This document shows positions 581 through 62,385 of a DNA stretch of 64,000 bases, one piece after another. Each line of letters starts with the position of its first letter. The stretch's first letter is position 1. Position numbers and translations under genes: made by a program. A model generated the notes under the pieces. The model made no database searches and was not told where the DNA came from. It saw only the letters and a list, made by a program, of their open reading frames with translations. The DNA is from Tubulanus polymorphus (taxonomy: Eukaryota; Animalia; Nemertea), in assembly GCF_964204645.1 (NCBI RefSeq), contig NC_134026.1, positions 16,526,150-16,590,149 of the forward strand, read 5' to 3'.

Positions 581-589
581 CTTTTAATC

Positions 590-1762: not shown

Positions 1763-1815
1763 GCTAGTTGAAGATATGTAATTTTTAATACTTTTTATTT
1801 AAATTCTATTATTCT

Positions 1816-2473: not shown

Positions 2474-2480
2474 TTTAATA

Positions 2481-11529: not shown

Positions 11530-11601
11530 CTAGATACAATAGAGAAAGTTTATGATTTGAAAAATACTTTTGCCAACCCTAAAGAATTGCTTTATGATTA
11601 C

Positions 11602-21800: not shown

Positions 21801-21809
21801 GGTCGACGA

Positions 21810-32235: not shown

Positions 32236-32250
32236 TTTCTTATTATATAA

Positions 32251-33399
32251 ATGGGGTTTCCAAAAGCTTTCCAATTTAATAAATCAATTAAATATAATAT
32301 TCCTGTAATAGACTTTAATAAAAAATATTCCCTTTAAAAATTTAGTTTTAAATTCATTAATTGATTTAGAAATTTATTTTACTGAAACAAAGTTTTTTTA
32401 TTTCTATAATGGAAAATATATTCAATACATAAGAAGTTACTTTTACTCGAGATGAATATACTATATATAAAATAAAATCTAATATGAAATATTGGCATAA
32501 TCAATTAGATTTTGCTGTTTATTGTGCAACAACAGGATGTGGTATAAGTTGGAACAATCATCTTAATAACTTAGATAAAAATTTGAATTATGCTGATTTA
32601 AAATTACTTCATACAATATTTATATTTCACACGTATTTTCAAATCAGAATATATTAAATGAATTAGAATGTCCTTTCTTGGATCGAAATATTTTAAAGAA
32701 TTGGATAATAATATTAATCTATCTAAAGTTTTATAAAATATGTAATGAATTTAATATAGATATAAATAATTCCGACATTAGAGCGCATGGTAAATTGCAT
32801 GGTGTTGGTGAACAGTTTGAAATAATAAGAATTGACTATATGCCTAGAAATGGAGCTTATCATAATTATAAAAATGATAATAATAATGGTTGGATCTATT
32901 TTATTTCAGAAAATAGTGAAGGTTTTTCCAAGCCAAATCAATCTATTAGAATTCATTTAATTTGTATTTTAGGATCACAGGTTGAAACAAGATCACCAAT
33001 AGTTGGCAATGATAATACTCCATATGATATACAAAAACAAAGTTTTATTTGAAGATTCTTTTCATAATAAAAATAGATCGATTCCAGAAAATAAAGTAAG
33101 ATATCAAAATTAATTTGGATTAAAGGATTTAAATAAAAAAATTATTACTGCACCAAAACTAATGGAAGGTGACAGAATTTAGAAAAAATATACAATCAAC
33201 AGAAACTGAAACTAAGAATATTAAATTAAATAATGATTCTAAAATAAAAGATTACAATACATCAGAAAATATAAAAACTGATAATATTCAGCATGAAATA
33301 ATTAAAACTAATAATGATAATAAATCACATGAAAATACTAAATTAGCTATAACTTGTATAGGAATTGTAATAGGAGGAATATTATATTTTAAATTTTAA
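32251..33399 (+). pseudogene. conserved Polinton-like hypothetical protein (QLDFAVYCATTGCG motif, C-terminal TM)
   Basis: MGFPKAFQ start shared with 60626; multiple frameshifts. Confidence 0.6.
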
Positions 33400-33415
33400 T
33401 TTTTATAAGATATAA

Positions 33416-36232: not shown

Positions 36233-37600
36233 AAGTAACTGGTAATGATAATAATTATGTCGTAGATAATGTTGGAAGATATCTATTTAAAAAATCAATT
36301 ATAAAGATTGGACCAGAAACAGTTTTTCATTAGATGATTATCATTTATTTACGCATTATTAAGTTTTATGATTAACAAAAGAAAATAGAAACAAGGCAAT
36401 TTGATACTACGTATCTATTTCCCCCGCGATAGCCAGTAGGGAATTAATGACCCCTGAAGACACTGATCTTTGGTAAAGAAAAATGATGAGTGTATCCAGG
36501 GATAACCATACTATGAAATATCATTTTCCTGCCATGAATGATTATTTAAGAATTGAGTTTACAGGGTTTTAGGCAAAAGACGTCTACCAACCTTGACATT
36601 TGACCCTAGAACTCCAAAATCACTAATGCACATCCTCTCCCCAGGGGTAATCATTCTATGAAATAGCATTGTTCTGTTATCAATGGTTCTTCTTGAATCG
36701 TATTTACAAGGTTTCAAATGAATGACCTGTAGTGACCTTGACCTTTGGTCCTTGGACCCCAAAATCAATAGGGCACATCCTCTACTTAGGGGTAATCATA
36801 CTACATAATATCGTGGTCCTGCTATCGACGGTTCTTCTTGATCACGTTCACAAGGTTTTACACGAATGACCTGTAGTGACCTCGACCTTTGATCCTTGGA
36901 CTCCAGAATCTATAGGGCACATCCTCTCCCTAGGGGTAATCATGCTACGTAATATCATGGTCCTGCTATCAACGGTTCTTCTTGAATCGCGTTCTTAAGG
37001 TTTTACATGAATGACCTTTAGTGAACTTGACCTTTGGTCCTTGGACGCCAAAATCAAGAGGGCACATCCTCTCCCTAGGGGTAATCATACTACGTAATAT
37101 CATGGTCCTGCGATCGACGGTTCTTCTTGAATCACGTTCACAAGGTTTTACATGAATGACCTGTAGTAACCTTGACCTTTGGTCCTTGTACCCCAAAATC
37201 ACTAGGGCACATCCTCTCCCTAGGGGTAATCATACTACTTAATATCATGGTCCTGCGATCAATGGTTCTTCTTGAATCACGTTCACAATGATTTACATGA
37301 ATGGCCTGTAGTGACCTTGACCTTTGGTCCTTGGACCCCAAAATTAATAGGGCACATCCTCTCCCTAGGGGTAATCATACTGTGCAATATCATAGTCCTG
37401 CGATCAACGGTTCTTCTTGAATCGCGTTCACAAGCTCACGCGGACGGACGGACGGACGGATGCGGATACCAAGTCCCCGCTCGCAGCCTACGCCGCGCGG
37501 TGGACAATAATATGATATTTCAAGGTATCCAATCAGAAAACCAAAATAAATTAAGATCAGAAGCTAATAATGCAGTAGTAACTTATGACATAGATAAAAA
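36233..37600 (+). pseudogene. probable major capsid protein internal fragment split by the HINE insertion
   Basis: Joined flanks read NNYVVDNVGRYLFKKSIIKIG...LTKENR|NNMIFQGIQSENQNKLRS, resembling from memory the major capsid of this Polinton group. Confidence 0.5.
36391..37507. mobile_element. HINE/DINE-like element with about six 145-bp internal tandem repeats
   Basis: repeat anchors at 36721, 36865, 37010, 37155 and 37300; (GACG)n and short hairpin near end; inserted at an A|A site without TSD. Confidence 0.85.
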
Positions 37601-38239: not shown

Positions 38240-38815
38240 ATATCTTTTACTGAGGTTATTTTGTAAGTTTATATTCATCGGCAAATTGAAGCATCAGAAG
38301 TAATTTGGAACCTTTATTATTTTTATCCGAAAAGTAATTTTTAACCTTTATTATTCATATATTCATCATGTAATTCAGTAGGTATAATTTGATTTACTTC
38401 CGGAGATTATTGCATAGATTTTTTTTATCTTTATTGTAGAATAAAACTAAAAATCTTATATTCTCCCTAAAATCTTTAACAATTGAATTATATTTTTGAT
38501 TTAAAACCCATGTTGTATTTCCAAAATGTCTCCCAGAGAAAGCTATATAGCATAGTTCACTTTCTCTAATTTTTGAATCATGTAAATTTGCACAATCATA
38601 TATGATGAATGATGTATTTGATCCTGTATAAATATCAATTGCTATTTTATTACAATTAACTAAATTTTCTTTTACAGTTTTAGGATCTAATATAATAAAC
38701 TTTTTTATCTCAACTATATCCATATTATATGTTAAATTCATTTCATAAGGAGGACAGAATAATATTATATTAGCAAAATGATTTTTATAACAAAATGTGT
38801 TTTACCACAGTTTAT
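38240..38815 (-). pseudogene. A32/FtsK-like DNA packaging ATPase
   Basis: Walker A remnant NCGKTHF; FIIYDC (degenerate Walker B); AFSGRHFG..WVLNQKY...FRENIRFLVLF. Confidence 0.85.
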
Positions 38816-39864
38816 TTATCATCATACCCTTTATATTCAACCAAACAATATTTCTTGCCACGTTATGTTTTTGTTTTCATTACTTTTTCTTTTTAGTATT
38901 ATATATCATCTGGGTTTGGTACCAGTGATAATTCTTGTTGATAAAAATAACCTAATATTTCTTCATCTTTTAGATCTTCTAATTTATAAACAAGTTTAGT
39001 TTAGTTAATATTATTTTTTTAATTTTGAATATTTCTTCAGTAAAATTTGGAGTATAACCTTTATAAAATGTTTTTCGAATGTTTTTCGATATTTAGATAT
39101 TCTAACATGTTGTCCAATTTTAAATTTAGGTTCTCCGAAATCATGTGTAACAAACACTCCATATAAATTGTTCTAAACAACCTCTAAATTATATTCTTTT
39201 CTAGCTTTTATAGGTTTCATACTAATACTTGAATGTTTAGAATTATTATAACCTTCCACTAAATCATCTTATACATCATTATATTTATATGTTTCATTAG
39301 CAGTAAAATATTTCCATATTCTAGATTTCAATGTTTTATTAAATCTTTCTATAATAGATGCTTTTTTGTCAGAGTTTGTTGAAAAATATTCTATATTGTT
39401 ATCAGATAATAATTTTCTAAAATGTTTATTATAAATTTTTTTACCTTCATCAAATTGTATCTTATCTGAAATAGCTTCTTTAAATATTAATTTGAACGCA
39501 TTAGTAACTTCTATACCAGTTTTATTTTTGATTGTAATTGACCATGCGTATCTACTGAATATATCTATAACATTTAATATCCAAAGATATACTTTATTGT
39601 ATTCGTCTAGGTATCTTCATATCTATTAAATCTGCTTGCCATTGTTGATCAATATATGAAACCATAACTTTTCTTGTTAGATAACTTCTATCTATTTTGT
39701 CATGGATTTGATTTGTTGGTTGATTTTGTAACCATACTTTTAATTCACTATATGTTATATTTTCATTATTAAATTTTATTTGATCCCAAAATTCTGAAAC
39801 ACTAGAATATGATACTTCACTCTCCGGGTTATAATATATATCTTCAATATTGTTCTTTTTTCAT
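38815..39864 (-). pseudogene. retroviral-like (rve) integrase with C-terminal chromodomain
   Basis: QQWQADLIDM, VIDIFSRYAW, IQFDEGKKFYN, KASIIERFNKTLK, KFKIGQHVRISK, KGYTPNFTEEIFKI, CLVEYKGYDD. Confidence 0.92.
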
Positions 39865-40214
39865 CTTATTTTAATCCATTAATAATAATTAAGATCAATG
39901 ATAATTTCAATGATTTTATCATTTGATTTATTTTCTGGTAATATAGGTTTATTATCATCATTATTACTATTAAATTTGAATTTATATATTACATCAGAAA
40001 ATATAATTACTGTGATTAATCCAGTTGTAATATAAAAGTTATTATTTCTCTTAGTATTAGAAGAATTAGATTGATTATTATTCGAATTAATAACAGATAA
40101 TTTCTGTGATTTATTTATATCAGTTAATTTCTTTTTCTTAACTCGTTTTAACTCAGAATATCTTTTACCTAATTTAATTTGTTTTTCAGATCTAGGCTTT
40201 TTCGTAATATAATC

Positions 40215-40794
40215 ACTAATTTATTTTACTTGATTTTTGTTCTGATTCAATATCTGTATCGATATTATCTGATTTTTATCTTTGTATTCTATAGGTTTCA
40301 TATTAGAAAATGTTATTACACCAGTAGAAATTAATGTCATTTTTCCAACTAATTGAAAAGAAGCATATCCAACCCATTTTGGTAATTCTTTCATGACTAA
40401 GTAATCATTGTTTAAATCAGTATTTAATTTATTTTCATCATTAGTTGGTATTATCCGGTTGCATACCTAAGAATAACATTTTACTATTCCATCACTAATA
40501 TAATCATTTATTCCAGCTAATCTAGCTTCTTCATATATTTTAGAATATTTTATTACTTTTTCTTTGTCCATAGAGTCTAATTCTTGATATGTTATAACTT
40601 TTACTTAGGAATTCTTTGCATTTACCACTAGCAATTAGTAATTCGAGTTGATGTTTATAATATAAATAGTATTCAATATCAATATTATTATTTTGAATAC
40701 AATTAGTTGCTACATTATCATTATTATCAGTAATACCTAAATCTTCAATTGTCCTTTCAATATCAATATTATTCTTATTGGATTTCTTAGACAT
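40215..40794 (-). pseudogene. disrupted homolog of 954..1568
   Basis: MSKKSNK...YYLYYKHQLELLIASGKC, frameshift and stops. Confidence 0.75.
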
Positions 40795-41668
40795 TTATTT
40801 TAGAAAAAAGTGAAGAAAATTTTATACTTATTCTTCAAATGATACTAGTAACTCTTTGGGTTAATACTAGCTAGTTAAGTTAAATAATTCTAGTATTAAC
40901 TAGATTTGAATATCTATTTGAAGTTATGTAATTTTTATTCAATTCTTATCAAAATCTATTTAATATAGTGTTAATTAGAATTAAATAAGAATATATTAAA
41001 ATTATAATAGAATTCAATAGCTAGTTATAGATACGTAATTCTAAATACTTTCAATATGAATTAGGATTTAATATCTCACTACTTTTGTTTATCTATAAGG
41101 AGCAATTAAATTGTCCAGATAAGTCATTTCGGATCCTTGATATTACTCCCTAAAACTGAAAATTAATTTCGAAAATAATAGAAACCGCTATTCGGGCAAA
41201 ATATCATACATTGAAAATCTATACAGTATGACAAAACAGCTAAGTCTCATTCGATGTAACATCCATAATTTCTGATTCTGCATCTTCACTTTCTTGTGAT
41301 AAACTTCTTGTTACCTAAAAGAGAAATCTATCTAGATCGTAGAATAGAATTAACTTGAAGTTGTAGTTGCCAAATATAAATTGCTGCACTTAAACATATT
41401 TAAAGGTTTCTTTTTAAGTATCCCCTTTCCCGAATTCTTAATAACAACAAAAACGGTACTTAGATTTATTGCTGGAACCGAAAACTCCGAATTGTATTGC
41501 AAGAGAGAAATCCTGTGCGTATGTCGACCACGGGTGTTCGTTTATAATGAAATTAATCAATTTTATGTGTGCAATTATGTGACAGGTGTTTTGACATACA
41601 GGCAGTTTTACGATCGGGCGTTGTTGCTGGTTTTCTAAGCGCTTAATAAAGTCTCAGTATACGGTTCT

Positions 41669-42262
41669 TTATTTGGGTCACTATTCCATTGCTCAATAAA
41701 TGTCTTTGCTTTATCTAACTGATCTAATTACAATTTCATATCTAGTTTGTTAGACTTAATTATATTTTCTTTCTTTTCGAGAGGTTTTAGATTCTTCCAA
41801 TTCCATATCAATTTCTTATTGTATTCATCATTCATGTTAAATTTAGATATCGGCAATACGTGATCTATATGGAAATAATCTCCGTAAATATTTGTGTTCA
41901 TTTCATCATCGAAATGATATACAAACCATGATTTTAAGAATTCATCCGAACAATCCAATAAATTAGATAGCGTAACTGAATGTTTATCTTAACTGAATGA
42001 ATTTGATAATCTATAACCTAGACATTGTTTTAATTTAAAATTAAAATCTGTTTGATATTTTTCTTTATGATAATTATTTTGAAACGGTTTAACATGGTCT
42101 GGATTATTTTCTTTCCATTGCTTAATTTTATCTTTGCGTGTTTCAATATTATCTCTATAATATTGTTGACTACTTACTTAATTCACACTTCGAATATTTC
42201 TTATGATAAATATTTACTACACTATGCGTAATATTTATAGTTTGTGGCTGTTTACTTTCCAT
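41669..42262 (-). pseudogene. HNH endonuclease, homolog of 1816..2473
   Basis: CSDEFLKSW...YGDYFHIDHVLPISKFNM...WNWKNLKPLEKKENIIKSNK. Confidence 0.8.
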
Positions 42263-42292
42263 TTATTATACATATTTTTTACTAAAATTGAT

Positions 42293-44293
42293 TAACATGT
42301 TATAATCCCTTTAATAATCTCATTTTCTTTCTCTTCATCCCTTTTGAACTTTAAGTATTCATCTAAATTGCAACCATAAGCAACTGTTTGAATTCCATCA
42401 TCTAATATATATCTTTTATCATCAAATGGGTTTAGACTAACTTCTTCTATTTCTTCTATAAACATTTCGTGGTACTCAGATCTTTAACATTTCATCTTAT
42501 GTTTTCTAACTTCTTCATTAAATAAACAATTGATGTTATCTTTAAAATGAATATTTTTTTCAACAAGGCTTTTTGTAATACCTTTCAATCTTTTAGATTC
42601 ATGAGTTTTATAACTATACATTTTAGATCGAATTCCAATGAACTCTATCATTTCTTCACCACCGAATTCATCCTTAAACTTCCCAGGAACTTTTCTATTA
42701 TCATCGTTAAACAATCCATGATTTTTAGGATAATTACTGAAATCCAAATGATGTTTTAATGTTTTTAAATCATCTGTTATTTAGTAGTTTTTATTACTAG
42801 TAAATTTTATCGCAGCCAAAACAAGGAATTTTGTACACTCCGCAGTCCAAAGGTTTAGATTTATTGTTTTTTACCAAAGTCTTACTAATATTGTTTTCAT
42901 AAGTGAAAATAATTTGTTTTTCCAATAAAGGGAGAGAGTGACGAAACTTTTCCAAAACATGTGCATACGGAACTACACTGAATTCTGAAATGTGTTTTTT
43001 ATTTTCTGGAGGTTTAGAATTGAAGAAAGTTCGTTTAGCCTGAAAATAGCGATTTTCAAAATGTGATCAGGGTATGCCAATTTTTTGAGTGAGTTAGATA
43101 TATGGTCAAATTCAGCCGAAAGCAAGGTTTCATCGCAGATCCGTAATGCACGGAGAAAGAGGCCTTGAGCGAGACAAATTTTGATTGATTTAGCAGTAAA
43201 CGAAAAGAAGTTAAGGTATGCCTCGGTGTTGATAGGTTTACGGTAAACTGAGCAAATCAAATGAGAATATTTATTGTGAATTAGAACATCTAAAAACGGA
43301 ATTTGGTCATTTTGTTCCCATTCAAAAGTGAATTTCAAAGAGGGATATTGGGAGTTGATGAAGTCGATAAAAGTGGTAAGATCAAAATCATTAGAAACTA
43401 AGCACTCTTTTCAGAATTCATTGTAGTTCGAAATTAAGACTGGTGTAATACGCTCTCTAGACCTTGTCAGAGTGACTAATCTTGCTGCAAGGTTTTGGAT
43501 GAGCTGGAGTCTGTGTACTAAGCCAGCATTTACACCAACTGAACATGAATTGCAGAATGTATCGTCATAAATATCATTTCATCGAATATCAAACCAGATC
43601 CTTCAAAATATTTATCTTCTACGTTACTTTTTATTTCATTATTACATTTATTTTATCTATCATCTATATGTTGTTTTAAAATAATATGTTGTGAATGAGA
43701 ATTTATATTATATATTGGTTTATCTTCAGATTTTATGAATTTAACTATTCTACGTCTGTAATTATTTTTATAATATTTTTCATATTTTCTTAATGTTTCT
43801 AATTTTCTTCTAATGTTTTACCTTCATAAAATTTAAATTCAATAGCAGCTGGTCCTATATCACTTTTAAATGCTTCGGTTATTTCAATATCTTTTTTATC
43901 ATCTAATGAATTATTATAATTTCTAACATCTTCCATGTATGGTATTTTATTGTTTAATTTATTTTTTATTCTTTTAATTGTGCTTTGTTCTTTATCATTA
44001 TTTTCATCGAAATAATCTTCACCTAAAATATCATTATTAACATCTCTAATATGATTTTTCGATTTCAAATGTTGTTCATAATATCTTTTGTTACTGAATG
44101 ATTGATTACATGTATCACATTTATATATTTCTTTTTCATTCTTAAATTCTTCTAATTTAGTTTCTAATATATCATTATTATATTGCAATTTCAATTCATT
44201 CTCTAAGTGTGTTAAAGTTGTATTAAGTCTTGCTTTTTTAGATTTATCTATAATTTTACATGTTGGACAGTTGTACTTCTTGTTTGCTTCCAT
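42293..44293 (-). pseudogene. protein-primed PolB with large internal deletion filled by foreign DNA
   Basis: N-terminus (ZnFs, IGPAA, YFEGSG) 43561-44293 and C-terminus (DFSNYP, PGKFKDE, GIRSKMYSY, NPFDDKRY) 42293-42800. Confidence 0.88.
42801..43402 (-). mobile_element. Penelope-like element fragment (RT thumb to start of GIY-YIG)
   Basis: KFTFEWEQNDQIPFLDVLI...VYRKP...YLNFFS...RALRIC; ends GVYKIPCFGCDKIY. Confidence 0.88.
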
Positions 44294-44330
44294 TTATTAT
44301 ATAAATTTTTTTATTAAAATTGATTTTATA

Positions 44331-44679
44331 TTATTCGAAATCAATATCATGGTGTCCTTTTTCATTCTTACCTTTGTATATGAAATAGAAATCACCTGAA
44401 TATAATTCTTCTAGATCTTCACTATATAATCTATAAAATCTATCTGGTAAATATGTTCTGAATTTATATTTATTTCCTTTTAATCCTTCATACTCTCAGT
44501 GAAAAACTAATTTATTACCAAATCTATGAGTAATTGTTTCAATATTTGTAATTAAATATTTCTAATGTAATGTTGATTCTGTTAACTTTTTGAATTTATA
44601 ATCTACAGATTTGACATTTGTAGTATCTTTAATTCTATTTTAGAAATCACTGTGTATTTATTTACTCTCCACTTATCAT
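44331..44679 (-). pseudogene. small terminal gene of copy B (unknown function)
   Basis: fragmented reading frame ...ITHRFGNK...KFRTYLPDRFY...FIYKGKNEKGHHDIDFE; shares upstream motif with neighbouring genes. Confidence 0.45.
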
Positions 44680-49700: not shown

Positions 49701-49997
49701 GACCATATATATCATCTATTAAATGCATTATGAAATAAGATTCGATTTTGAATGAAGTGAATTTGACGCGTCGTTTGACGAGTCAAAAATGCTATTTTAA
49801 TTTTGACATTTTTTCCATGCAATACGAGTGCTTGGGGTGCTAGAGCACCAACCCCTCCCCCTTGGAAAATTAACATCGTAATACCCATGTTTATGTTTCA
49901 AAATTGCCCGGGGATGAGAAGAGAATATTCAAAATTTTGAACCACGCATTATGCATTATGATGCTTTAAAGGGAGTGAAACTCCTAGACGAACCTAC

Positions 49998-50555
49998 CTC
50001 TTGATATCTGCGATATTACAGTTTTGGCAAGTTCTGTTCGCCATGCATTCGTGTAGTTTGTGATGAGGAATTTGAAGCTCAATGGGACGACCTTGCCTAA
50101 TACATCCGACTTCTCGTCAAAGGTTATTGTGTATATTCGGATACTGCTTAGGGCTAAGCAGTTAGCTATCTTTCGTAGTTTCCATTCATCCATTGTTCCC
50201 CCACTACCAACAACGATTACCGTTTTAGGGACCTTTTTTCTGGATGCCAGTGACTTAAACACGATTTCCCGTGCATGAGCTAATGCCACCTCTGAACTGA
50301 CATCGGTACTGCTAGATTGGGAAAGTTTCAACAAATCAAACCGTTCGGCAATGCAGTGCTGATTGTCGCATATATCAAGGTCAATACCGGGTCTGACTTC
50401 CGTATCAAACGGGTATACGGCTAACCTCGTAAAGTCGAGATGAACCGAGCTTGTGAGTATTAATTCCTTGACGATGTCTTTAAGAGCTTGCAACTTCATC
50501 GGACTAACGGCCGCCGACTTGTCAATATACAGTGAAATATCAATTGGAGAACTAT
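49998..50555 (-). CDS. host exon: VWA domain
   Basis: PIDISLYIDKSAAV...TRLAVYPFDT...RKKVPKTVIVVGSG; ttgcag/gtaggt; 558 nt. Confidence 0.9.
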
Positions 50556-50624
50556 CTGCAATATAGAGTATCATAATGCTTAGACAATAACTTATGGAAG
50601 CGCAGAAGATATATTCAAGTTTAC

Positions 50625-50741
50625 CTAAGCATTCTGGTGACCTATCTCCTGGGGGGCACTTGCATTTGAACGAACCATCGGAATTGACACATGCCCCGCC
50701 ATTGGGGCAAACATTTCTGATACTAGTGCATTCATCGAGGT
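50625..50741 (-). CDS. host exon: calcium-binding EGF domain
   Basis: DLDECTSIRNVCPNGGACVNSDGSFKCKCPPGDRSPECL; ttatag/gtaaac. Confidence 0.9.
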   Translation of the reverse strand, partial: TSMNALVSEMFAPMAGHVSIPMVRSNASAPQEIGHQNA

Positions 50742-50831
50742 CTATAAATTATACATCAATTTTTTGTACGATACAAAGCATGTTTCTCTTTCTCGAATCT
50801 CAGGTATTGCTATTTCTCATTAATTGTTTAC

Positions 50832-50912
50832 CTTCACACATTTCGTGCGGATGTGCTCTGTCACTAGAAGGGCCCCTCCAAACGCTGTGATAACCGTGTT
50901 TACAGTGGGACT
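50832..50912 (-). CDS. host exon: short Cys-containing exon
   Basis: SHCKHGYHSVWRGPSSDRAHPHEMCE; ttacag/gtaaac; 81 nt, phase 1-1. Confidence 0.7.
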
Positions 50913-51015
50913 CTGTAATAATAGACAGTGATGCAGAGTATAAATGGACGTATGCGTATTTAAACGAACCTTTCGGATATTAAATGGAAATAATAAGTAA
51001 AAGACTGTTTCTTGC

Positions 51016-51301
51016 CATTAATTGCGCGAGATATGAGATTTCCTGTAATTGCATTGAGTTCTTTTTCTGTTAATGCTGTAAATGAGGTGACTTCCGTTAG
51101 ACCATTTACAGGAATCATGTCAGCTACCACATTATTTTTTGATTTTGTAGTGACTGCTACCATAGCGATATCTTCGTTAAGATATCGCGTGATCGAATCT
51201 AAAGCTCGGTCTTCGTTTGTGTCGGTTCCAGATCCGACGTATATTACCATTTTCTTTACAGCAGGTCGCGCCTTGACTCCATTCAAGATTTCGGCATTTG
51301 C
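51016..51301 (-). CDS. host exon: C-terminal half of VWA domain (predicted GC donor)
   Basis: ANAEILNGVKARPAVKKMVIYVGSG...ISRAIN; ttag acceptor; gcaag donor at the position equivalent to paralogous exon ends. Confidence 0.75.
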
Positions 51302-51415
51302 CTAACGTACGACATACGCAAGTAACAGGTATAAACATCGAAGATAAATGTATATATACAACATGTATGTTTCTAGATCAGTATTGTCATCACTTAACCA
51401 TCATTCGGGGCGTAC

Positions 51416-51690
51416 CTTTTCGAGAGCTATTGACATATGCGGTGGCTTATTTCGCCAAGTCCACAGGCTGATATCATTTGAGATACAACTAGGATCCTCG
51501 CATCTATCTAACTCGGTAGCGTACCAAACTGTGTCCGCATAAGCTAGCGTTGCTATCTTTATATATCGACCATGGTGCATAAACAGCTTCTCAGTTAGTA
51601 ATTTGAAAATTGCAAATGCTTTAACCCATTCCTCGTGGCTTAGAGCATTTGAACAATCCAGAATCATCACAATATCTATTTGTCCGACGC
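51416..51690 (-). CDS. host exon: N-terminal half of VWA domain
   Basis: QIDIVMILDCSNAL...IKIATLAYAD...HMSIALEK; ttatag/gtacgc. Confidence 0.85.
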
Positions 51691-51787
51691 CTATAAAAGA
51701 AAAAAAAACATACAACCCCAACTCATTCGGTGATATGATGATTTGAACAGTCTGGATAAATAATGGAATAATAAGAATCAGTATTAC

Positions 51788-51895
51788 CCAAACAGTTAGT
51801 CCTGTTCCTTGGACAAGGGCACCAAAATCCTTTATCAAGATCAGTACACTCTCCTTGGTTAAAACATGGATTAGCATTGTCACACTCATCGGTAT
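51788..51895 (-). CDS. host exon: calcium-binding EGF domain
   Basis: DTDECDNANPCFNQGECTDLDKGFWCPCPRNRTNCL; tttag/gtaata; 108 nt. Confidence 0.9.
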
Positions 51896-52337
51896 CTAAA
51901 AGTATTTGTCGATTGAGTAATAATGGAATAGGTAATCGCAATTTGTCATGGTATATCCAGCTTTGTGATTTGCCACATCAAGGATTTGTGCAAATATTTC
52001 GTTGAAATCAATCTTATCAGTACATGACGTAGGCTATTTCAAAGGAGCACCACCTAGACGGTGAACACATATAATGGATAGTGGATGCATATGGGCGACT
52101 AGGTACAAACTTCTGAAGTACCGAGTTTAGCAAATTTAGGAAATGGCCATACAAAATTGATAGCGTGTTTTAAGCTGGTTTCTCAGAAGTAACGAGAGAG
52201 ACAGTTGTTTAATTTAACCGCTTTCTAGCAGTAAAGTAGTACCGACAATACAAGTAATTAGAAGATGGCGTTTTCAAACCAGAGTACTAGAGTACTAGCT
52301 CCCACTCATCACCACAAGTAATTTTTTTTCCTTATAA

Positions 52338-55300
52338 ATGGGGGAGAATGAACACCAGACAGAAAACAATAATGTTAATAAAAATCAATTTTATTGTCCA
52401 TATTGTAAAAAATACATCATGAAAAATCATATAAAAAATGTTATAGATTTTGAAACTTCAGAAAATTCCAATGAAAGAAAAGAACGATTAGAAAATATGA
52501 ATGTGGATGAAATTAAATGTGAAGTTTGTAATGAATTTATAGTAAAAAGGAATTATAATAGACATCTCGAATCACAAAAACACCATCAAAATTTGAGTAA
52601 TAATGTTTTAGGAGAAGATTATTTCGATGATAAACCTCAACAAGTTAAAAAACCAACTTCAAAAACTAAATCCATTTCAAATAAACCCTACATGGAAAAT
52701 GTTAGAAATTATATTGATTCAATAGAAATAAAAGATACAATTGAAATTTTAGAAACAATACATAGTAAAATTGGACCTGCAGCTATTATATTTAGATTTT
52801 TTAAAGGTACAACAATAGAAGATTATAATAAATTTAATGAAATAATAGAAAAAATACTAGATTTGATAACAGATGTTGAATATCCAAAAATTAGTATCTC
52901 TGGGAAAGTAAGTTTTATAAAGTCAGAAGAAAAAAATGGATTATAATATTCAAACACTCTCTGAAGAAATAATTTCAAAAACACAAATAGAAGAGAAGTT
53001 AGAAAAAATATTTAATGAATTTAAACGTCATATTGAAGAAAGATATTTTGAGGGTTCTGGTTTATCATTAAATGAAATTATATATTTAGATTTAAATGTT
53101 TATAATGCAAAAAGAAATAAAACATCAAAAAGTAATAAAATGTTTAAAAATGATACAAACTTTATAACAGAAAAGGATATTAAAGCATCATCTTATATTA
53201 AATTACCATTAACATCAAAAGCAGTAATACATGTTCAAAATGAAGATAATAAATGTTTTCTATGGTCAATTATTAGTTGCTTACACCCAACAGAAGATAT
53301 TAAGCATAGATTTAGAATAACAAATTACCGGGAATATGAAACATTATATAAAATTGATCAATATCCAGTAACTATAAAAATGATACCCAAAATAGATTTT
53401 TAATAATCTAAAAATTAATGTATTCGAATTAATGCAATTACCAAAGACAAAAGGCGAAAATTGGAAGCTTTATATTTAACAGAATATTATGATGATGAAA
53501 ATGCTATAGATTTGTTATATTACAAAAAAGATGAAAATGAACATTATATGTGGTTAAAACAAATTGATTTATTCTTTAGAACAGAAAGTGATTTTAACAG
53601 TCATAAAATTTATCTATGTAGAAAATGTATATCTAAATTTAGAACTGAGAATGCGTTACTAAAACATAAAGAATTATGTGATAATTATGTGATAATAAAG
53701 ATTTTTGTAAATTAATAATGCCACCAAGATTATAAATTGAAATTTACTAATCATAAATTTAAGAATATTGTTCCATTTGTAATATATGGGGATTTTGAAT
53801 CGTTGAATAAAGAATTAACCGATCAAGATAGAAAAGAAATATATAACAAAAAGCAATTATTAAAATTAATGGATAAAGGAAATGAATTAAATGAAGACAC
53901 AACACAAGACCCACCAATTATAAATACAATTAAAAAAAATCATCAAAGAGCTGCTGCTTCTGGAATTTACATAAAATCAAATTATCCCGAATTATATGGA
54001 AGTCAATATATTTCTTTTAGAGGTGAAAATGTAGTTAATGATTTTTGTAATAAAATAATTGAATTAGAAAGTGATTTTGCAGAATTATTAAACAAAAATA
54101 AAAGAATAGTTATGACAAAAGAAGATGAAATTGATTTTAATTATGTAACTCATTGTTGTTATTGTGAAAACGTTTTTATTCATTTGATAAAAAAGTTAGA
54201 GATCATGATCATTTAAATTCAAAATACCGCGGAGCTGCTCATGAAGATTGTAATTTAAAAGCTAAGAAAGTTAATTTCGTACCAATATTATTTCATAATT
54301 TATCAGGTTATGATACCCATATATTTATAAAACAATTATCAGGAAAATTGGGCGCAATTAATCAAGAAATAGAAGAATATAATGCTATGAATGGTGCAAA
54401 TTTAAGAAAATATGATTTTAAACAATTGGCTTAATCATCTGAAAATTATATTTCATTTCAATTTGGTTGCATTAGATTTTTAGATTCTTATAGATTTCTA
54501 GCAAGTTCATTAGATAATTTATCAAAAAGTTTAGTTGATAATGATTTTATAATAACTCGACATTACTATCCAAATGAACAAGATTTTAAATTATTGAGAT
54601 ATAAAGGCGCAATTCCTTATTCATTTTATAAAACACATGATGATTTTAATGTAACAGAATTATTAAAAGATCAATTTTATGATCAATTAAAAGAGGAGTA
54701 TGTGAAAGATGAAGTGTTTAATAGAACATTAAATATTTGGAACCATTTTATGATGAAAAATCATGGTGAATTAGTTGATTTATATTTAAAATCAGATGTT
54801 ATGATATTGGCTGACATATTTGAAAAATTCAGAGAAGTTAATTTAAATCATTTTAATGTTGATCCTTGTTATTGTTATTCAAGCCCCGGTTTAACCTGGC
54901 AATGTGTTTTAAAATATACAAATGTAGAATTAGATTTATTAAAAGAACCAGACATGGTTTTATTATTTGAAAAATCAATTAGGGGTGGAATTAGTGGTGT
55001 TATGGCAGATATATATTTTAAAGCAAATGATGAATATAAATTATTATATATTGACGCCAATGATTTTTATGGTTGGGCAATGATGCAACCTCAACCATAG
55101 AAAAATTTTATATTAACAGAAGTTGAAAATGATGATAAATCTGACTGGGAAAGCGCAATTGCGAGTTTAAAAGATGAAGCACCAATTGGCTATTTCTTTG
55201 TAGTTGATTTAGAATATCCTGAAAATATAAAGTTTAAAACAAGAAACTAACCTTATTGCCTAGAACATTTAACTGTAGATGATAGTTATTTAAGTGAATA

Positions 55301-57367
55301 CCAGAAGAAAATAAAACCGAAAGATCATGTTTTTACAGAAAAATTAATACTTACTCAAAATAATAAATACAATTATATCGTTCATTATAGAATGTTAAAA
55401 TTTTATCTAAAACAAGGAATGAAATTAAAGAAAGTACATAGATATATTGAATTTAATCAATCGAAGTGGTTAGAAAAATATATAGATTTCAATACTCAAC
55501 AGAGAACAATATCTAAAACAGATTTTGAAAAAGATTTTTTTAAATTAATGAACAATAGTTTTTATGGAAAAACATGTGAAAATATTAGAAATAGAAATGA
55601 TATTGAATTAGTAAATAATTCTGAACGATTAAGACATTTACAATCAAGTCCTAGACATTTAGGAAATAAAAGATTTGAAGATTATTTAACAGCAGTTAAA
55701 TTAAAAAGAACGTCAATGAAATTTAATAAACCTATATTCATTGGTTCAAATGTTTTAGAAGTATCAAAATTATTAATGTATGATTTTTATTATAATGTTT
55801 TACAACCACTTTTTGGGGAAAAGCATATTGAAATATTATATTTTGATTCTGTAACAGCTGACACCCCAATATTATTAAAATGTAATGATAAAATATTGAT
55901 AAGAAGAATTTCAGAAATAATTCCAAAACAAAATGAATGTTATATTTCGTATGGTGAAAAAGAATTAATACAAATAAATGAATTAATGGATGTTTGGACA
56001 AGAAACGGATGGAAAAAATTAAAGAATATTATTAGGCATAAAACAAATAAGAAAATCTATAGAGTTAGAACTAAATTAGGGTTTGTAGATGTTACAGAAG
56101 ATCATAGTTTAATTAAACGAAATGGCGATGAAATAAAACCAACTGATATAAAAATTGGAGATGAATTATTACATAAAAGATTTTTCCAAAGAATGAATCA
56201 TATGTCATTCAACGAAATTATTGATAATATTTATAATATAGAACCTGAAACATTAGAAGAAAAAGAATATTTTATCAAAGGATTTTTCATTGGTGATGGT
56301 TCAGCAGGTGTGTATAAATATGTTAATCGCACTCAATATTGCTGGTATTTATGCAATCAAGATTTGAAATTATTAGAAAGAATAAAGAAATTCTGTGAAG
56401 AAGTTTATTCACATAAAAAATTTAAAATCATAGATGTTATGAAATCATCACAATGTTATAGAATACATGTGAATAATACTAAAGATTTTGCAATTAAATA
56501 TAATGATGAATTCTATATTCATGCAATAGTGAAAAGTAATACTTCAACAAAAGAAAAGATAGTTCCAGATTATGTATTAAATGCAAAAGATAATTTAAGA
56601 AAATGGTTCTTCATTGGGTTCTATGCTGCAGATGGTTCAAAAAGTTTCAAAAACCACAAAACAATATCTTTAGCTCAAAAAGGAAAAGTTACTATATCAG
56701 GATTGAATATATTATGTAATTCATTAGGTTTTAATATGAATATTGGATTGATTAAATCTAAACCAAATTGCTTTAATTTAAGCCATGTAGAAAATGAGTT
56801 AACTGAAGAAGTTAAAGATTTATTCGAAATATATAACCCAACAGATTATGTTTATGATTTATCATCTGAAGATGGCACATTCAACTGTGGATTTCCATTA
56901 ATTGCGTTCAATACTGACGCCTACATACTAAAAATCAAGACAAATGATATAACAAAAGACTTAAAAACATCAAAACATCATTTTGATTTTAGCAATTATC
57001 CCAAAGATCATGAACTATTTAGCAATGATAATAAAAAGATTCCTGGTAAATTTAAAGATGAATTAGGGGGTGATGAAATGATTGAATTTGTTGGGATAAG
57101 AAGTAAAATGTAAAGTTACAGAACAAAAGATCATGAAGCTAAAAAATTAAAAGGATTAAAAAACATGTAGTTGATAAACACATAGAATTTAAAGATTATA
57201 TAAAGTGTTTATATAACTCAATTGTAATGAAACATAAAATGAATTGTTTAAGATCAGAAGATCACGAGATGTATATTAATGAAGTTGAGAAACTAGTTTA
57301 AATCCATTTGATGATAAAAGACATATTTCAGATGATGGTATAAAAAACATTACCTTATGGTTATTAA
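52338..57367 (+). pseudogene. polB: protein-primed family B DNA polymerase (pPolB), full length, intein-containing, with stops/frameshifts in the exteins
   Basis: NEDNKCFLWS; ExoI VIYGDFES; RDHDH...YRGAAHEDCNL; ExoII FHNLSGYD; FLDSYRFL; ExoIII YLKSDV; motif A YIDANDFYGWAM; motif B KLMNNSFYGK; motif C YFD|TD; PGKFKDE; NPFDDKR. Confidence 0.95.
55848..56912 (+). mobile_element. intein (355 aa) with LAGLIDADG homing endonuclease inserted in pPolB motif C
   Basis: Block A SVTADTPILL; block B VDVTEDHSL; LAGLIDADG motifs FIKGFFIGDGS and FFIGFYAADGS; block F YVYDLSSEDGTF; C-terminal Asn followed by Thr; removal restores YFDTD. Confidence 0.95.
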
Positions 57368-57735
57368 AATGGATCAATATCATCAAACTCGAAATCACTA
57401 TTGGTTCCTTCTTTTTCATTTAATTGTTCTTGTATAATTTGTTTAGGTTCTTCCATTTCATTTTTCTCATTTAAATAAAGTTCTATCTTGTACCACATTT
57501 CATCTCGCTCTCTTTGTTTCTTTTTGTTTGTTAATTCATCAAATGGAATTATAATATCGATGTTTAAATAATTTACAATCTTATTTAAAAAGAATTCATA
57601 ATTAATTGAATCTGTTATTCTATTATCCACATAATATCTTAATATTTGTTTGAATATGTCTTTTATATTTTCAATATCTTTTTCTGTTAATTTAGGTTTT
57701 TTATAATAATTGTTAAATAATAAATATAAATGCAT
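57364..57735 (-). CDS. hypothetical protein of copy C
   Basis: 123-aa AT-rich ORF convergent with pPolB. Confidence 0.5.
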   Translation of the reverse strand: MHLYLLFNNYYKKPKLTEKDIENIKDIFKQILRYYVDNRITDSINYEFFLNKIVNYLNIDIIIPFDELTNKKKQRERDEMWYKIELYLNEKNEMEEPKQIIQEQLNEKEGTNSDFEFDDIDPF

Positions 57736-57798
57736 TTTCTCTTCTTGTGTGTTAAATGTTGATGGAATAATTGTTTTTATTATATCTTTTTAGTTATT

Positions 57799-58398
57799 TC
57801 ACCATTTTAATTTTCTATTATTTTCAAGCCATTGCTTATATTCTGGTGTATGATCTTCCATAGAAAATATATTAAATATTTCATCTAGATATTTTAATTT
57901 TGGTTCTATGAGAAAATCTCTAGTTTTTTCATCACCCCATGAATTTTTTTCCCATCCACATACATTACAAAATATCACAGAACCTTCTTGTCTTAAGTAC
58001 TCATAAATACATTTTGGACATTTTTGTCTATCATTTCTTAGTAATAGCTCTTCGTTAAGCTCTTGGTATTTTCTTACGTTTTCTTTATGTTTTATTGTTC
58101 TATTATGTAGATTTGAATTACTTGTTGTAATAATCAATTTATAATATTTACAATAATATGTTTTTCTTGTTAATTCATTGTATTGTTTTTCCAACTTTTT
58201 AAGCGTTTCTTCATTATCTGGCAACGTTTTCTCATATTTAATTTTTTCTAATATTTTATTTTGTCTTTCATTGAATTCAGTTTCAAATTTATTAGAAATT
58301 TTATCTATATGTATTTTACGAAATTGATGATTTTCCCAAGCTTCTATATTTTTAGGACTATATTTCATTCGACAAGGCTCGCAGAAATGATCTGTCAT
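57799..58398 (-). CDS. zinc-finger/zinc-ribbon protein of copy C
   Basis: FCEPC...HQFRKIH; YYCKY...HNRTIKH; KCPKC...FCNVCGW. Confidence 0.6.
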   Translation of the reverse strand: MTDHFCEPCRMKYSPKNIEAWENHQFRKIHIDKISNKFETEFNERQNKILEKIKYEKTLPDNEETLKKLEKQYNELTRKTYYCKYYKLIITTSNSNLHNRTIKHKENVRKYQELNEELLLRNDRQKCPKCIYEYLRQEGSVIFCNVCGWEKNSWGDEKTRDFLIEPKLKYLDEIFNIFSMEDHTPEYKQWLENNRKLKW

Positions 58399-58404
58399 AT
58401 TATC

Positions 58405-58680
58405 CTTGTCATATAATAAGAAAGGTCTTTTCCAAATAATTTCAGATTCAACTTCAGCAGAATTACTATTACTTTCATAACTATCAACATTAGCCGTTGC
58501 GCCATTAATTTTACACTTCTCTCAATGTTTTTTAACATAATTTCTTGAGAATAATTTATTACATTTTGGGCAGTTTATTTTAGGGGGTTTATAATTTTCA
58601 TCATGTTTTTTCATATGTCGAGCCATATTACTTTTTCTTAGAAGTTCACCACAAATTTCACATGCTATCTTCTCATCCAT
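58405..58680 (-). pseudogene. small C2H2-type zinc finger gene
   Basis: MDEKIACEICGELLRKSNMARHMKKH...NCPKCNKLFSRNYVKKH*; TAAATG start. Confidence 0.6.
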
Positions 58681-58748
58681 TTATTTAGGAAAAATTTTAT
58701 TAAAATTAATTTTTAGTGATTAGCGGTAATTTTTTTATGTTATGAATA

Positions 58749-59350
58749 ATGGTAGAATTAAAAGAATACAGAATATTTGTTGATTCTAGAAGACTTACAA
58801 ATTATAAATCTCATAATTTACTAGTACAATTAGATAGAGAATTTAAGGATTGTGTGGATTGTGTTGATTTAAAATTAGTAAATATAAGTTTATGTAATTC
58901 TTTTTATAATGTATCGGGTAAATGTATTGAACATAGATTGTTTATTTTTGATAGAAATGCCGATAAATGGTATCATATATTTATAAGACCAGGATTATAT
59001 AATTTAGAAACATTAGCGCAAGAAATTAATAGGGCGCGGCTGCTGGATTTGTAATTAAATTTTCAAAAAGTGATATCAATAATAAAGTAAGAATAAAGTT
59101 AGATAAAGATGAACAACATAAATTTTTAGTTAAAAAACCTATGGCTAAACTGTTAGGAATTAATCTAAATAAACTTTATTCAAATGTTGACATTGCACCA
59201 AACTTAATACCTTACACGCATTTTTATAATTATTGCAATTTAATTGATCCTACAAAAACATTCGAAGCAACTAAACATATAACTTGTAATTCTGGTTTAT
59301 TAAACATTTTACCATTGAAGAATGTTAAATGGAACGCAAATAAATTATAA
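58749..59350 (+). pseudogene. probable minor capsid (penton-like) protein, frameshifted
   Basis: LVNISLCNSFYNV...IRPGLYNLETLAQEI...AKLLGI...YCNLID...LLNILP pattern typical of Polinton-like pentons (recalled, not searched). Confidence 0.55.
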
Positions 59351-59582
59351 TTTAACAGAATAATTATAATTTAAAGAAAATTATAATATAGAAAAAGTAA
59401 TTGATTTAATTAAAACGCCTTTAGAATATTATGAATTAAATGAAGATGGAATTATTGATGATATTAAAAACATATTAACCAAAATATATGATAATCATAA
59501 AAGTAGTAATGAAATAAATGTTGAAATAATCATAACTAAGAAAAATAAATATTTTGAAGATAGTAATTTTTTTGATAAATAA

Positions 59583-60152
59583 ATGAGTGATAATAAGTGG
59601 ATAATAACTGGATTATATAATGGAGCATTACTATCAGTTGGAACTGTTGATTATTCAATGGTATTTAAAAAAAGTATTTAAAATGGGAAGTGTTAATGTT
59701 GATAGATTTGATATGATATTTTAAAATTAACATTAGCTTCTGTAATTCTAACTACTATAGGAACAGCAATTGTTAACGCTTTAGCATTTACTGGTGGTAG
59801 TTATTTATTTAGGCATATAGATAAAAATAGTTCATTAAAAGAACAAAAAAGACATAACTTAGCATTAGAGAAATACAATAAAGCAGCAGAAGAATACAGA
59901 GAAAAGAGGCAAAACTATATGGATTATATTAACAAGGAATTATATGATCAGAAGATTTCACATAGAGATTTTCAATCAGTTGATGATGCAATGAGTTTAT
60001 ATAACGCGGTAACCAATAAAGAAAAATTACATCTATACAAACCTAAATTATTAGATTATTATACCCCAGGTAAATAACAACAGAAATATGAAATAATTTG
60101 GATTTTAGGTGAAACAGTTATTGTTATATTTGTTGCATATAAATTTACTAAT
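59583..60152 (+). pseudogene. two small hydrophobic/coiled-coil genes of Polinton-like element
   Basis: MSDNKWIITGLYNGALL...; GTAIVNALAFTGGSYLF...EQKRHNLALEK...DFQSVDDAM...PKLLDYYTP. Confidence 0.55.
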
Positions 60153-60174
60153 TAGTAATTTTTTTGTTAGATAA

Positions 60175-60608
60175 ATGGATGATAAAGTTGATAAAATTGA
60201 TATTATTCCCCATGATATGAATAAAACTAAATTAAAAATATATTTAGAAAAACAAATATTAGAATTTGAAAGTGACTTAAAGATAAAAAAGAAAAAATAT
60301 TTAAAAAGTAAAATTATATATTATCTTATTAATAGTGTTTCAGTTACAAATAGTTCTGTAATAACATTTCTAGCAATATTCTCACCTTTAACACCTTTAG
60401 CTATATCAATTGGTGTGCTAGGTTTAAGTTCAAGTGTTTTAACCGGTATAAGTTCAAAATTAAATATAAAAAGTAATAAAGAAAAAATTAAAAATAATAT
60501 AAAATAAATTAATAAATTGAAGAATACACTAGATTATATAATGAGTTTAAATGGCCATATAACAGTTGAAGAACAAGATAAATTATTAAAAGAATTAATA
60601 AATTATTA
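60175..60608 (+). pseudogene. coiled-coil plus two-TM protein, premature stop at 60507
   Basis: ORF 60175..60507 with hydrophobic hairpin; homolog at 31895-32235. Confidence 0.6.
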
Positions 60609-60625
60609 ATTTTTCAATTATATAA

Positions 60626-60960
60626 ATGGGGTTTCCAAAAGCTTTCCAATATAATAAATCATATAGATATTTAATTCCACCTATAAATTTTTAATAGTTT
60701 TATAACATATAAAAATGTAGTTTTACCTTCATTAATTAATTTAGAAATTTATGTTACTGAAACAAAGTTTTTCATTTCTAGAATGGAAAATATATTTAAT
60801 ACATATGAAGTTACTTTTACTCGAGGTGAATATAATATATATAAAATAAAATGATGAAATATGAAATATGAAATATTGGCAGAATCAATTACATTTTGCT
60901 GTTTATTGTGCAACAACAGGGTGTGGTATAAGTTGGAATGATCACTTGAATAATTTATAT
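60626..60960 (+). pseudogene. truncated homolog of 32251..33399
   Basis: atggggtttccaaaagctttccaa start; QLHFAVYCATTGCGISWN. Confidence 0.65.
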
Positions 60961-61779
60961 AACAATTTGTCTTATAAGGGTTTTCTGTTTCTTCACAGAA
61001 AACCCTATTGAAATTCGCGTGATTATTATTTTTTTCCCTTTTCCACATAGTTTTTGTTAAAAGTGTAAAGGCTTCCTTACCTTACCGCTGTCGCCGATAC
61101 AATCCGTATGGTGTCCTTCAGCTCACTTCAATCTCCAGATACTGCATGGGAATTTTGATAAATCCACGTTATAAAGGCACTGTCGAGCCGTAAACATCGG
61201 AAATTTGGCTCCATTCAATTAGTTGCCATGTTGTGTTTTCTTACCGATATTTCTCTCTTCTTTTCGAGGAAGAGCTATCGAATAATTCCCTCTCTTCTCC
61301 ACAATCAATTTCAAAGTCAATTTTATGAATTTATTGCTCAGCGGGTCCGAGTCCAAGAGTTTGCGAGTCCGGCGTTCGCGTGTCTGACAGGTTTACGGGC
61401 ATTTGTTTGTTACCTCTTTAATATGTTTGATTTCTTGTTATTCCGCTTATTTTATTTAAGTATATTGCTGATCAGTTCATGTAACCAAAAGCGTCAATAA
61501 ACAGACTTTGAATTGATCAAGTTTAAATCAAGGTCGTTGAGTCGCGGAAGGCTACTAGAATTACGTTCGTCTTCGTCTCAGAGAGAAAACAAACGACAGA
61601 AAAGTATCAGGTGATTATCGATAGCCTACAACGGTACACACAGTTGACAAACAGTGTTAGGCCTGTGCCGGTTGGTGCGTACTGGGACTAAATATACTGG
61701 TTGGTCAGTTGGTTCGGTTGTGAAGTGTGGAAGCTAAGATTATAAGAAAGCCTACCGGTATTTATTTGTCTATAGGCCT

Positions 61780-62385
61780 AGAAGCCAATACCATTTTAAG
61801 TACGTAGTTGTTAACCGCACGTGACTGTACGGTGATCTCCACAGGTTAACCGCGTACGTGAGGTCCCTACTAAGTTTATAATGCCATACGTGAGTTCCTA
61901 GTAGCCAATACCATTTTAAGTACGAAATTGTAATGCGTACGTGACTGTACGGTGATATCCACAGGTTAACCGTACGTGAGTTCCCTACTTACGCCGTACG
62001 TGAGTTCCTAGTAGCCAATACCATTTTAAGTACGAAATTGTAACGCGTACGTGACTGTACGGTGATATCCACAGGTTAACCGTACGTGAGTTCCCTAAAA
62101 ACGCTGTACGTGAGTTCCTATAATCTGCAAACGCGCATGCGTAAAAGAATAGAGTTTGGGTTAGGTGAGGCTAGGCTATTTGTAAATCAAATTTCATCCA
62201 CCCACCAGTTACGTTCTGTGGCACAGTGGGTAAATCACTGGACTACTACTGGATTTTTTTTTCGTTTGGTTTCGAATCCCAATATTGCAAGTCCTAGCGT
62301 CAACGTACTCACATATAGCTTACCTGTAGAAATCACCGTACAGTCACGTACAGGTAACAACAGCGTTTTAAGTATTAAGTGAGTA
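61780..62385. repeat. about 110-120-bp tandem repeats with an inverted copy (probable non-autonomous DNA transposon)
   Basis: agccaataccattttaagtacg at 61782, 61903 and 62013; inverted gtacgtgactgtacggtgat copy near 62330-62350. Confidence 0.7.

Follow-up and report, generated by a model that had tools for sequence, protein, structure and literature searches.

The intein of the Mimivirus (APMV) R322 PolB represents the pol-c, or site III, allele (Ogata et al. 2005, PMC549080). Nuclear inteins of eukaryotes have been described in fungal VMA1 and Prp8, in Anaeramoeba, and in endogenised giant-virus polymerases of algae (PMC5784728, PMC10710043), and Nucleocytoviricota are reported to carry inteins between eukaryotes (PMC10710043). 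The protein-primed polymerases (pPolBs) of Polintons are divided into an Alpha and a Beta type (Starrett et al. 2021, PMC8502044), and HNH and VSR endonuclease insertions have been reported in them (Jeong et al. 2023, PMC10748475), for which PMC11071308 speculates about 'intein invasions'. The main text of PMC10748475 contains none of the words 'intein', 'HINT', 'homing' and 'LAGLIDADG'. 'Polinton' and 'animal' do not occur in the covered part of PMC10710043, and PMC5784728 has no 'animal' in its text and no 'Polinton' in four supplements. Further papers (PMC12220804, PMC13768754, PMC5718144) mention inteins just in general terms in the parts covered. No HINT-LAGLIDADG intein in a protein-primed PolB or Polinton was found in the literature covered.

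Here, we analysed a stretch of DNA of 64,000 nucleotides (the window), in which an intein of the pol-c allele splits the catalytic motif C of a Polinton pPolB (Table 1). The allele itself is known (PMC549080); its presence in a Polinton pPolB is unreported in the literature covered. As far as the available parts of the sources describe it, the APMV R322 intein has the same insertion point in motif C, a Ser...Asn/Thr junction (slashes mark insertion points or splice junctions), a LAGLIDADG endonuclease, a similar length (351 vs 355 aa), a non-His penultimate residue and the internal motifs in common with the intein described here. It differs in its host, an RNA-primed instead of a protein-primed PolB, and in its site (YGD/TDS vs YFD/TDA); more generally, the site reads YFD/TD in the window and YGD/TD at viral loci. 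Compared by eye, the C-terminal block of the window's intein is one residue shorter and ends in Phe-Asn instead of Lys-Asn. The HNH and VSR inserts likewise place nuclease domains inside Polinton polymerases, whereas the window has a full splicing domain interrupting a catalytic motif. With the Beta adintoviruses and Polintons of PMC8502044, the locus shares the divergent extein class and a weak PF03175 match, and a sister copy within the window has matches below the cut-off to integrase and A32 ATPase; the covered part of that paper has no 'intein', and the window has no identified capsid, protease or terminal repeats. The eukaryotic nuclear inteins offer parallels in their virus-mediated spread and in homing between distant paralogues, DNA polymerases included (PMC5784728 and PMC10710043, in the parts covered).

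Table 1 Positions of the intein, its host gene and the surrounding Polinton copies in the window.
Feature	Positions	Strand	Basis
Intein, 355 aa, Ser1...Asn355, HINT with embedded two-motif LAGLIDADG homing endonuclease	55848..56912	+	Pfam, AlphaFold2, Foldseek, exact read skip
Block A (N1), Ser1 nucleophile, SVTADTPI	55848..55871	+	Motif check
Block B (N3), Thr-x-x-His (T83, H86)	56088..56111	+	Alignment, motif check
First LAGLIDADG helix, GFFIGDG, Asp150	56280..56300	+	Model and motif; acidic residue kept in 14/14 Polinton inteins examined
Second LAGLIDADG helix, GFYAADG, Asp262	56616..56636	+	Model and motif; kept in 14/14 Polinton inteins examined
Blocks F/G, DYVYDL...FNCGF-PLIAFN; Thr is +1 of the C-extein	56844..56915	+	Alignment, motif check
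Host gene, Beta-type protein-primed PolB of Polinton, ~10 reading-frame pieces	52338..57361	+	ORFs, Pfam, relatives
VLTF3-like gene fragment, same element	57364..57735	-	PF04947 E=4.7e-7
Decayed, right-truncated, AT-rich Polinton copy, approximate extent	52200..60975	.	GC 0.24, read depth, relatives
Second decayed related copy	38397..44336	-	Relatives, Pfam
rve integrase fragment in second copy	39272-39616	-	E=1.2e-6, under cut-off
A32 ATPase fragment in second copy	38397-38801	-	Pox_A32 E=0.0016, under cut-off
pPolB pieces in second copy	42367-42780, 43560-44269	-	Relatives

The intein comprises 1065 bp in frame within ORF 55392-57113. Its Ser codon at 55848 directly follows Tyr-Phe-Asp (55839-55847), and its terminal Asn ends at 56912 and is followed by Thr; the insertion thus falls between the first Asp and the Thr of motif C. 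A sequence-only reading made beforehand had proposed exactly these boundaries, and all 12 motifs that it listed are present, as is the non-His penultimate residue (FN). Two independent observations support the boundaries: in relatives that are 91% identical (P0158, P0400), the site is empty and reads YFD-TDS, and raw reads described below skip exactly 1065 bp. All residues expected of a class 1 intein are present (S1, TEDH in block B, YVYD in block F, N355, T+1), and in all 14 Polinton inteins examined Ser1, the His of block B, the two Asp residues of the endonuclease, the Asn and Thr+1 are conserved. Blocks F/G carry a one-residue deletion relative to most giant-virus inteins, and Phe replaces the usual, though not universal, His of class 1 inteins before the terminal Asn. 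Among 355 relatives, the terminal residue pairs are HN in 165, KN in 139, SN in 17 and FN in 10, so the family tolerates a non-His penultimate residue.

Domain and structure searches agree with this assignment. LAGLIDADG_3 (PF14528) matches above the Pfam cut-off (E=2.6e-7), Intein_splicing below it (E=2.3e-6, 27.9 bits against 35.8), and Hom_end at E=0.008. An AlphaFold2 model of the intein (pLDDT 81.6, pTM 0.86) finds homing-endonuclease inteins as its top PDB matches (7qsu, E=3.6e-14; 2cw7; PI-PfuI; PI-SceI), together with I-DmoI. The Foldseek matches for the HINT fold are 7qsu, 2cw7, 1dq3 and the mini-inteins 5o9i/5o9j, and giant-virus PolB inteins rank first among viral structure models. 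In the protein search, 2073 proteins match at E<=1e-3. We regard the intein in the catalytic motif of this Polinton pPolB as confirmed and complete; protein splicing and DNA cleavage are predicted for it.

The host gene has its motif A near 55045-55075 and its motif B near 55540-55571, with motif C split at 55847/56913; PF03175 matches 54594-55097 (E=2.7e-7). Piece by piece, it is 57-91% identical to the intact, intein-free P0400. Because frameshifts and in-frame stops break its frame, this copy is a pseudogene. The intein itself is unbroken; nine breaks in about 3960 bp of extein predict 2.4 per 1065 bp, and the chance of none, calculated by hand, is about 0.09 and not significant. Read depth climbs from about 8 to about 600 in the bin 52112-52412, around the approximate left limit of the Polinton copy; no terminal repeat was found for this copy, and its left end matches nothing else in the window. 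The integrase and A32 ATPase fragments sit in the second copy (38397-39616), not in the truncated intein-bearing one. In the second copy, the central part of the polymerase is missing, and with it the N-side of the intein site; a LINE-like fragment (42976-43578) occupies that place. Both copies are decayed; no capsid or adenain protease was matched by Pfam among the scanned fragments, no terminal inverted repeats were identified in the window, and tblastn found no second intein there.

Four decayed, related Polinton pieces lie in these 64 kb (1-3400, 31900-34500, 38400-44340 and 52200-61000), in both orientations and 67-83% identical over their shared parts. The element family also carries a VLTF3-like fragment and an ORF without a Pfam match that we take, from its motif, to be HNH-like (57364-57735, 1819-2199 and 41731-41988, all on the minus strand); both gene types are found in giant viruses too. 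Elsewhere in the window, there are von Willebrand A exon-like pieces (11579-12145 and, on the minus strand, 49984-51889; PF00092 E=9e-13 for 49987-50574), a BEL/Pao-like retroelement fragment (21809-22678) and tandem arrays (36496-37434 and 61777-62120). The window probably belongs to the nuclear genome of an animal.

The intein is not confined to this copy. Of 116 Beta pPolB stretches in which the site can be read, 24, the window's included, carry a motif-C intein and 92 are empty; this set is biased to carriers, as the search queries (ORF and intein) contained the intein, and two proteins without a readable site and one that was too short were set aside. In the extein tree, 22 of the 23 filled rows fall in one Beta subclade of 44 rows (SH-aLRT 99). 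P0271, P0272, P0275 and P0278 are full-length, uninterrupted carriers, so that a polymerase gene can contain the intein and still be intact. Relatives are labelled mollusc, spider, hagfish and crinoid. Two Polinton pPolBs appear under bacterial names (P0156 and P0170; a Thiodiazotropha MAG from a lucinid clam and Bartonella sp.), of which P0156 bears the intein; they are probably host DNA inside bacterial assemblies. The flanks inspected at listed viral and prokaryotic loci (68 of the 121 loci of one set) gave no DNA from further Polintons that carry the intein. A metagenome scan using P0271 found nothing, and in a separate set of 130 metagenome loci the best 80 reach at most 41% identity over the full length.

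For the phylogeny, trees of 97, 52 and 21 rows were drawn from 355 by clustering and by hand, with the nearest relatives retained; 24 of 316 extracted inteins and four identical ones were dropped. In the 52-row mixture-model tree, the Polinton inteins other than P0164 form one clade (9 of 9 rows, 100/100), and the same clade appears in two other trees (13 of 13 rows, support 100 or 100/100). It is nested in a 97/92 clade of 43 rows, mainly giant-virus-type inteins, outside of which lie four divergent archaeal rows and an Asgard-MAG row; the 97-row quick tree agrees. This clade, free of archaeal rows, bears out the proposal that the element holds a Nucleocytoviricota PolB-type pol-c intein. As the archaeal outgroup rows did not form one clade, we can only infer the root and the direction of the jump. 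The proposed direction, from RNA-primed to protein-primed PolB, is probably right and is the best reading of the tree.

'Mimivirus', the label chosen by the sequence-only reading, is too narrow, and 'giant-virus type' holds. APMV, absent from the trees, was compared by eye from its row in the supplement of PMC5784728: 11 internal motifs match, while APMV ends in Lys-Asn and has the longer C-terminal block. Six patterns derived from the motifs occur throughout the family, in 50-223 (depending on the pattern) of 318 inteins that are neither Polinton nor archaeal, so that the motifs are not specific to Mimivirus. A pattern search aimed at the Mimivirus intein returned five other viruses; P0373, tried as R322, has the same length but is a different protein.

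The feature that narrows the kinship is the short C-terminal block (a GF motif with a one-residue deletion), found in 22 of 23 Polinton inteins versus 47 of 332 others. Of the GF-type GVMAGs, the taxonomy table of PMC8575486 lists four, each as IM_01 (Mesomimiviridae), and four more are absent from it. Four further GF inteins sit at the same motif-C site in gp43-type polymerases of T4-like phages (P0013, P0017, P0283 and P0285; phrog_262 E<=2e-77). Of 14 Polinton inteins, 12 find their closest outside match in a GF intein, at 44-48% identity. The best tree found unites the Polinton and GF clades (lnL 4.26 above the free search, AU p=0.577). In the free tree, this union has a support of just 82/83 with one intruder row, and it is an open fork in two other trees; FastTree, regarded as the least reliable method, instead places short or degenerate inteins next to the Polinton clade. 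The Mesomimiviridae and phage inteins differ in forming a separate clade and in their RNA-primed host polymerases, and the sister relation is not significant. The shared deletion points to one of these two groups as the nearest sister, rather than to the Mimivirus-like viruses that had been proposed as nearest kin, since APMV lacks it.

Could the donor, then, have been the PolB of a T4-like phage, or an unsampled intermediate, with the same subsequent spread among Polintons? The four phage inteins at the same site speak for this, a tree with Polinton and phage inteins monophyletic is 3.37 lnL units lower and not rejected (AU p=0.419), and one of the four best outside matches of P0272 is a phage intein. 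However, phages account for 4 of the 47 GF rows, and their place is within the GF clade (99/92) beside the IM_01 viruses, so that they look like recipients, and the top outside match is viral, not phage, for 14 of 14 Polinton rows. Phage DNA, moreover, does not normally replicate inside eukaryotic cells. We consider a phage donor unlikely. The DNA of the target site, whose comparison the sequence-only reading had suggested, carries no donor signal: of 18 nt, GF viruses match the window's site at 11.4 (n=17), other viruses at 11.0 (n=48) and archaea at 11.6 (n=14), a likeness imposed by the motif. Among full-length carriers, P0271 has the intein nearest to the window's; its site reads Tyr-Gly-Asp as in viruses, which shows that Polintons do contain a bridge sequence.

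Several other members of the intein family stand out in their own right. The phage inteins P0013, P0017, P0283 and P0285 group with Mesomimiviridae PolB inteins, another cross-domain motif-C jump. The PolBs of an Asgard (Promethearchaeota) MAG and an uncultured archaeon (L123:4001-5008 and L124:4001-5008) hold giant-virus-like pol-c inteins, 36% identical to the query and unlike other archaeal pol-c inteins. The pol-c intein of P0358, named 'catalytic subunit of DNA polymerase delta [Chloropicon primus]', groups with viral inteins (FastTree). Outside polymerases, P0294 carries a same-family intein (41% identical) in an ADP-ribosylglycohydrolase at Gly-Gly-Asp/Thr-Asp-Thr, a look-alike target, and P0274, P0024, P0135, P0363 and P0367 are type II topoisomerases, identified by Pfam labels or, for P0024, by its flanks, with one or two same-family inteins at Asp/Ser sites.

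Filled and empty alleles of the element coexist. Raw reads under the same species label (run X6) include 19 with an exact skip of 1065 bp; another 28 lack the intein and have Thr-Asp-Ser where the window has Thr-Asp-Ala, a variant +3 codon. The mean depth is about 8 in near-unique host DNA, 438 over the extein and 207 over the intein (intein/extein 0.47). Roughly 55 element copies are estimated from these depths, about half of them filled; the estimate stems from one run, of which 12% was read, the host baseline of about 8x may include paralogues, and the depth counts reads of >=80% identity and misses divergent copies. Similar pairs exist in other families. P0154 (filled) and P0407 (empty) share a 90% cluster and have exteins that are 100%/98.8% identical, and P0272 (filled, 1537 aa) shares a 90% cluster with the empty P0392, P0393 and P0395 (1191-1193 aa). 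Against these three mates, P0272 shows 13-14 differences in 65 residues near the site versus 9-17 in the other 1126 (p<=7e-11), for an interval, -7 to +53 of the site, that was chosen after the data were seen. In sequence terms, this cluster is a gene-conversion signature, in either direction; the tract could reflect homing, recombination with an empty copy that erased the intein, or resistant sites that survived. Across the extein tree, there are nine changes between the filled and empty state, at least seven of them forced by starred branches.

These data bear on a second alternative, namely that a single old capture was followed by vertical descent and repeated precise loss, with no homing now and with the empty alleles as losses or recombinants. 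The equal intein and extein identities between deep lineages and the agreement of their trees fit such a history, as does the P0272 family, where the filled flank resembles filled relatives (diagnostic residues: 7 vs 2 for P0153, 6 vs 1 for P0152, 5 vs 3 for P0151) and the empty allele may be the derived one. Homing endonucleases that are out of use decay, yet none of the 14 inteins, at about 45% identity, has lost either catalytic Asp. In addition, P0152 and P0272 are placed differently in the intein and extein trees, and the Alpha-type P0273 cannot hold its intein by descent. We regard loss without homing as improbable, to the same degree as a phage donor; persistence by homing between Polinton copies, through the predicted endonuclease, is likely.

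P0273 is an Alpha-type pPolB that is 20-31% identical to Beta N-exteins. Compared with the window, its extein is 24%/37% identical and its intein 49%, and none of its 119 Alpha relatives carries the intein, including 80-90% identical proteins labelled Mytilus. Its intein falls inside the Polinton clade (100/100), together with seven Beta rows (98/96), and, given this incongruence, arrived laterally. The direction was likely Beta to Alpha, with Beta-only monophyly not rejected (AU p=0.191). The other outlier, P0164, belongs to another Beta clade and has a long C-terminus; its intein is 51-52% identical to giant-virus inteins vs at most 42% to Polinton ones and groups with the former (98/93). 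P0164 is probably a second capture, which is compatible with the preferred reading of one old capture and homing for the rest. That P0164 and P0273 each received an intein directly from a virus, in a history of several separate giant-virus captures, is less probable than either alternative above: the features of P0164 speak for it, while a single origin including P0164 is not rejected (AU p=0.242) and P0273 sits inside the Polinton clade. AU tests rejected no alternative tried (p=0.242, 0.577, 0.419 and 0.191).

The divergence of the intein matches that of its host. Between the window and P0271, N-extein, intein and C-extein are 62, 62 and 61% identical; the values are 51, 51 and 51% for P0272 and 45, 51 and 52% for P0154. 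Four Beta lineages branch identically in the intein and extein trees. Since intein and extein are equally diverged between deep Beta lineages and share their branching, the capture is likely old, ancestral to the 44-row Beta subclade, and not an event in this element or host as had first been supposed. The phylogenetic pattern expected by the sequence-only reading was found, with the intein nested among giant-virus-type PolB inteins and the extein among Beta Polintons; the Polinton inteins also form a deep clade congruent with the extein. This congruent clade is half of what that reading had named as speaking against itself; it dates the capture and does not refute it. In the least credible alternative of all, the intein recently passed straight from a Mimiviridae-like virus to this element while both were infecting this host. 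This reading can call on the likeness to APMV, the Mimivirus site YGD/TDS (PMC549080) and the Polinton-like viruses that accompany entomopoxvirus infections (PMC11296320, in the part covered), but the data contradict it: the nearest inteins are those of other Polintons (74% over a fragment, 62%) vs about 44% for giant-virus ones, intein and extein are alike in GC/GC3 (0.25/0.16 vs 0.22-0.28/0.12-0.21), and the C-terminal deletion is missing from APMV.

Taken together, we favour, as the probable explanation, that the window's intein belongs to a clade specific to Polintons, which goes back to a single ancient capture from the RNA-primed PolB of a giant virus (Imitervirales-type, most likely Mesomimiviridae-related) and has since persisted by homing. 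The first capture would have required donor and Polinton DNA in one cell, once. It may have been eased by an 18-nt motif that is about 60% alike in all PolBs examined, probably via an intermediate site like the Tyr-Gly-Asp of P0271. The donor DNA could have arrived by co-infection or ingestion or have lain in an endogenous viral segment, and the cell could have been that of an animal or of a protist. The sequence-only reading took co-infection by a Mimiviridae-like virus as implied, which the data do not require; a phage donor is not rejected by the AU test. From intein chemistry and the conserved residues, the precursor is predicted to self-splice (Ser1, block B Thr/His, block F Asp, Asn355, Thr+1) and to rejoin Y-x-D-T-D. 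An intact carrier would so keep a working polymerase; the window's broken copy would not. The LAGLIDADG domain would cleave the motif-C site of a further Polinton copy that lacks the intein; with a filled copy as repair template, that site would be converted together with the codons flanking it. With tens of chromosomal copies per nucleus as targets, the intein would act as a gene drive within a transposon family. Filled and empty alleles are observed side by side in the species label and in two other families, with differences clustered at the site in one. A later jump would have led from a Beta to the Alpha pPolB P0273, where the incongruence is observed and the direction is our reading of it.

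The carriers named in surveys of eukaryotic inteins are fungi, algal plastids, some protists and giant viruses. The Polinton intein would serve as a heritable record that animal-type Polintons and giant viruses have been in contact, and it bears on the question of Polinton dependence on such viruses. It also provides natural filled/empty pairs at >=98% identity, usable for studying homing, co-conversion and target resistance in multi-copy elements. Furthermore, an intein allele is seen here to cross polymerase classes that have little more than the motif-C site in common, a step for which Ogata et al. supposed a cascade of transfers (PMC549080, in the part covered). We put forward more tentatively, as a possibility somewhat short of even, that a living, giant-virus-derived intein gene drive operates in animal genomes, having cycled for long among Polintons, crossed the divides between RNA-primed and protein-primed and between Beta and Alpha polymerases, entered at least twice, and selected for resistant motif-C sequences. 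If true, it would record an ancestral co-replication of animal Polintons with Imitervirales-type viruses.
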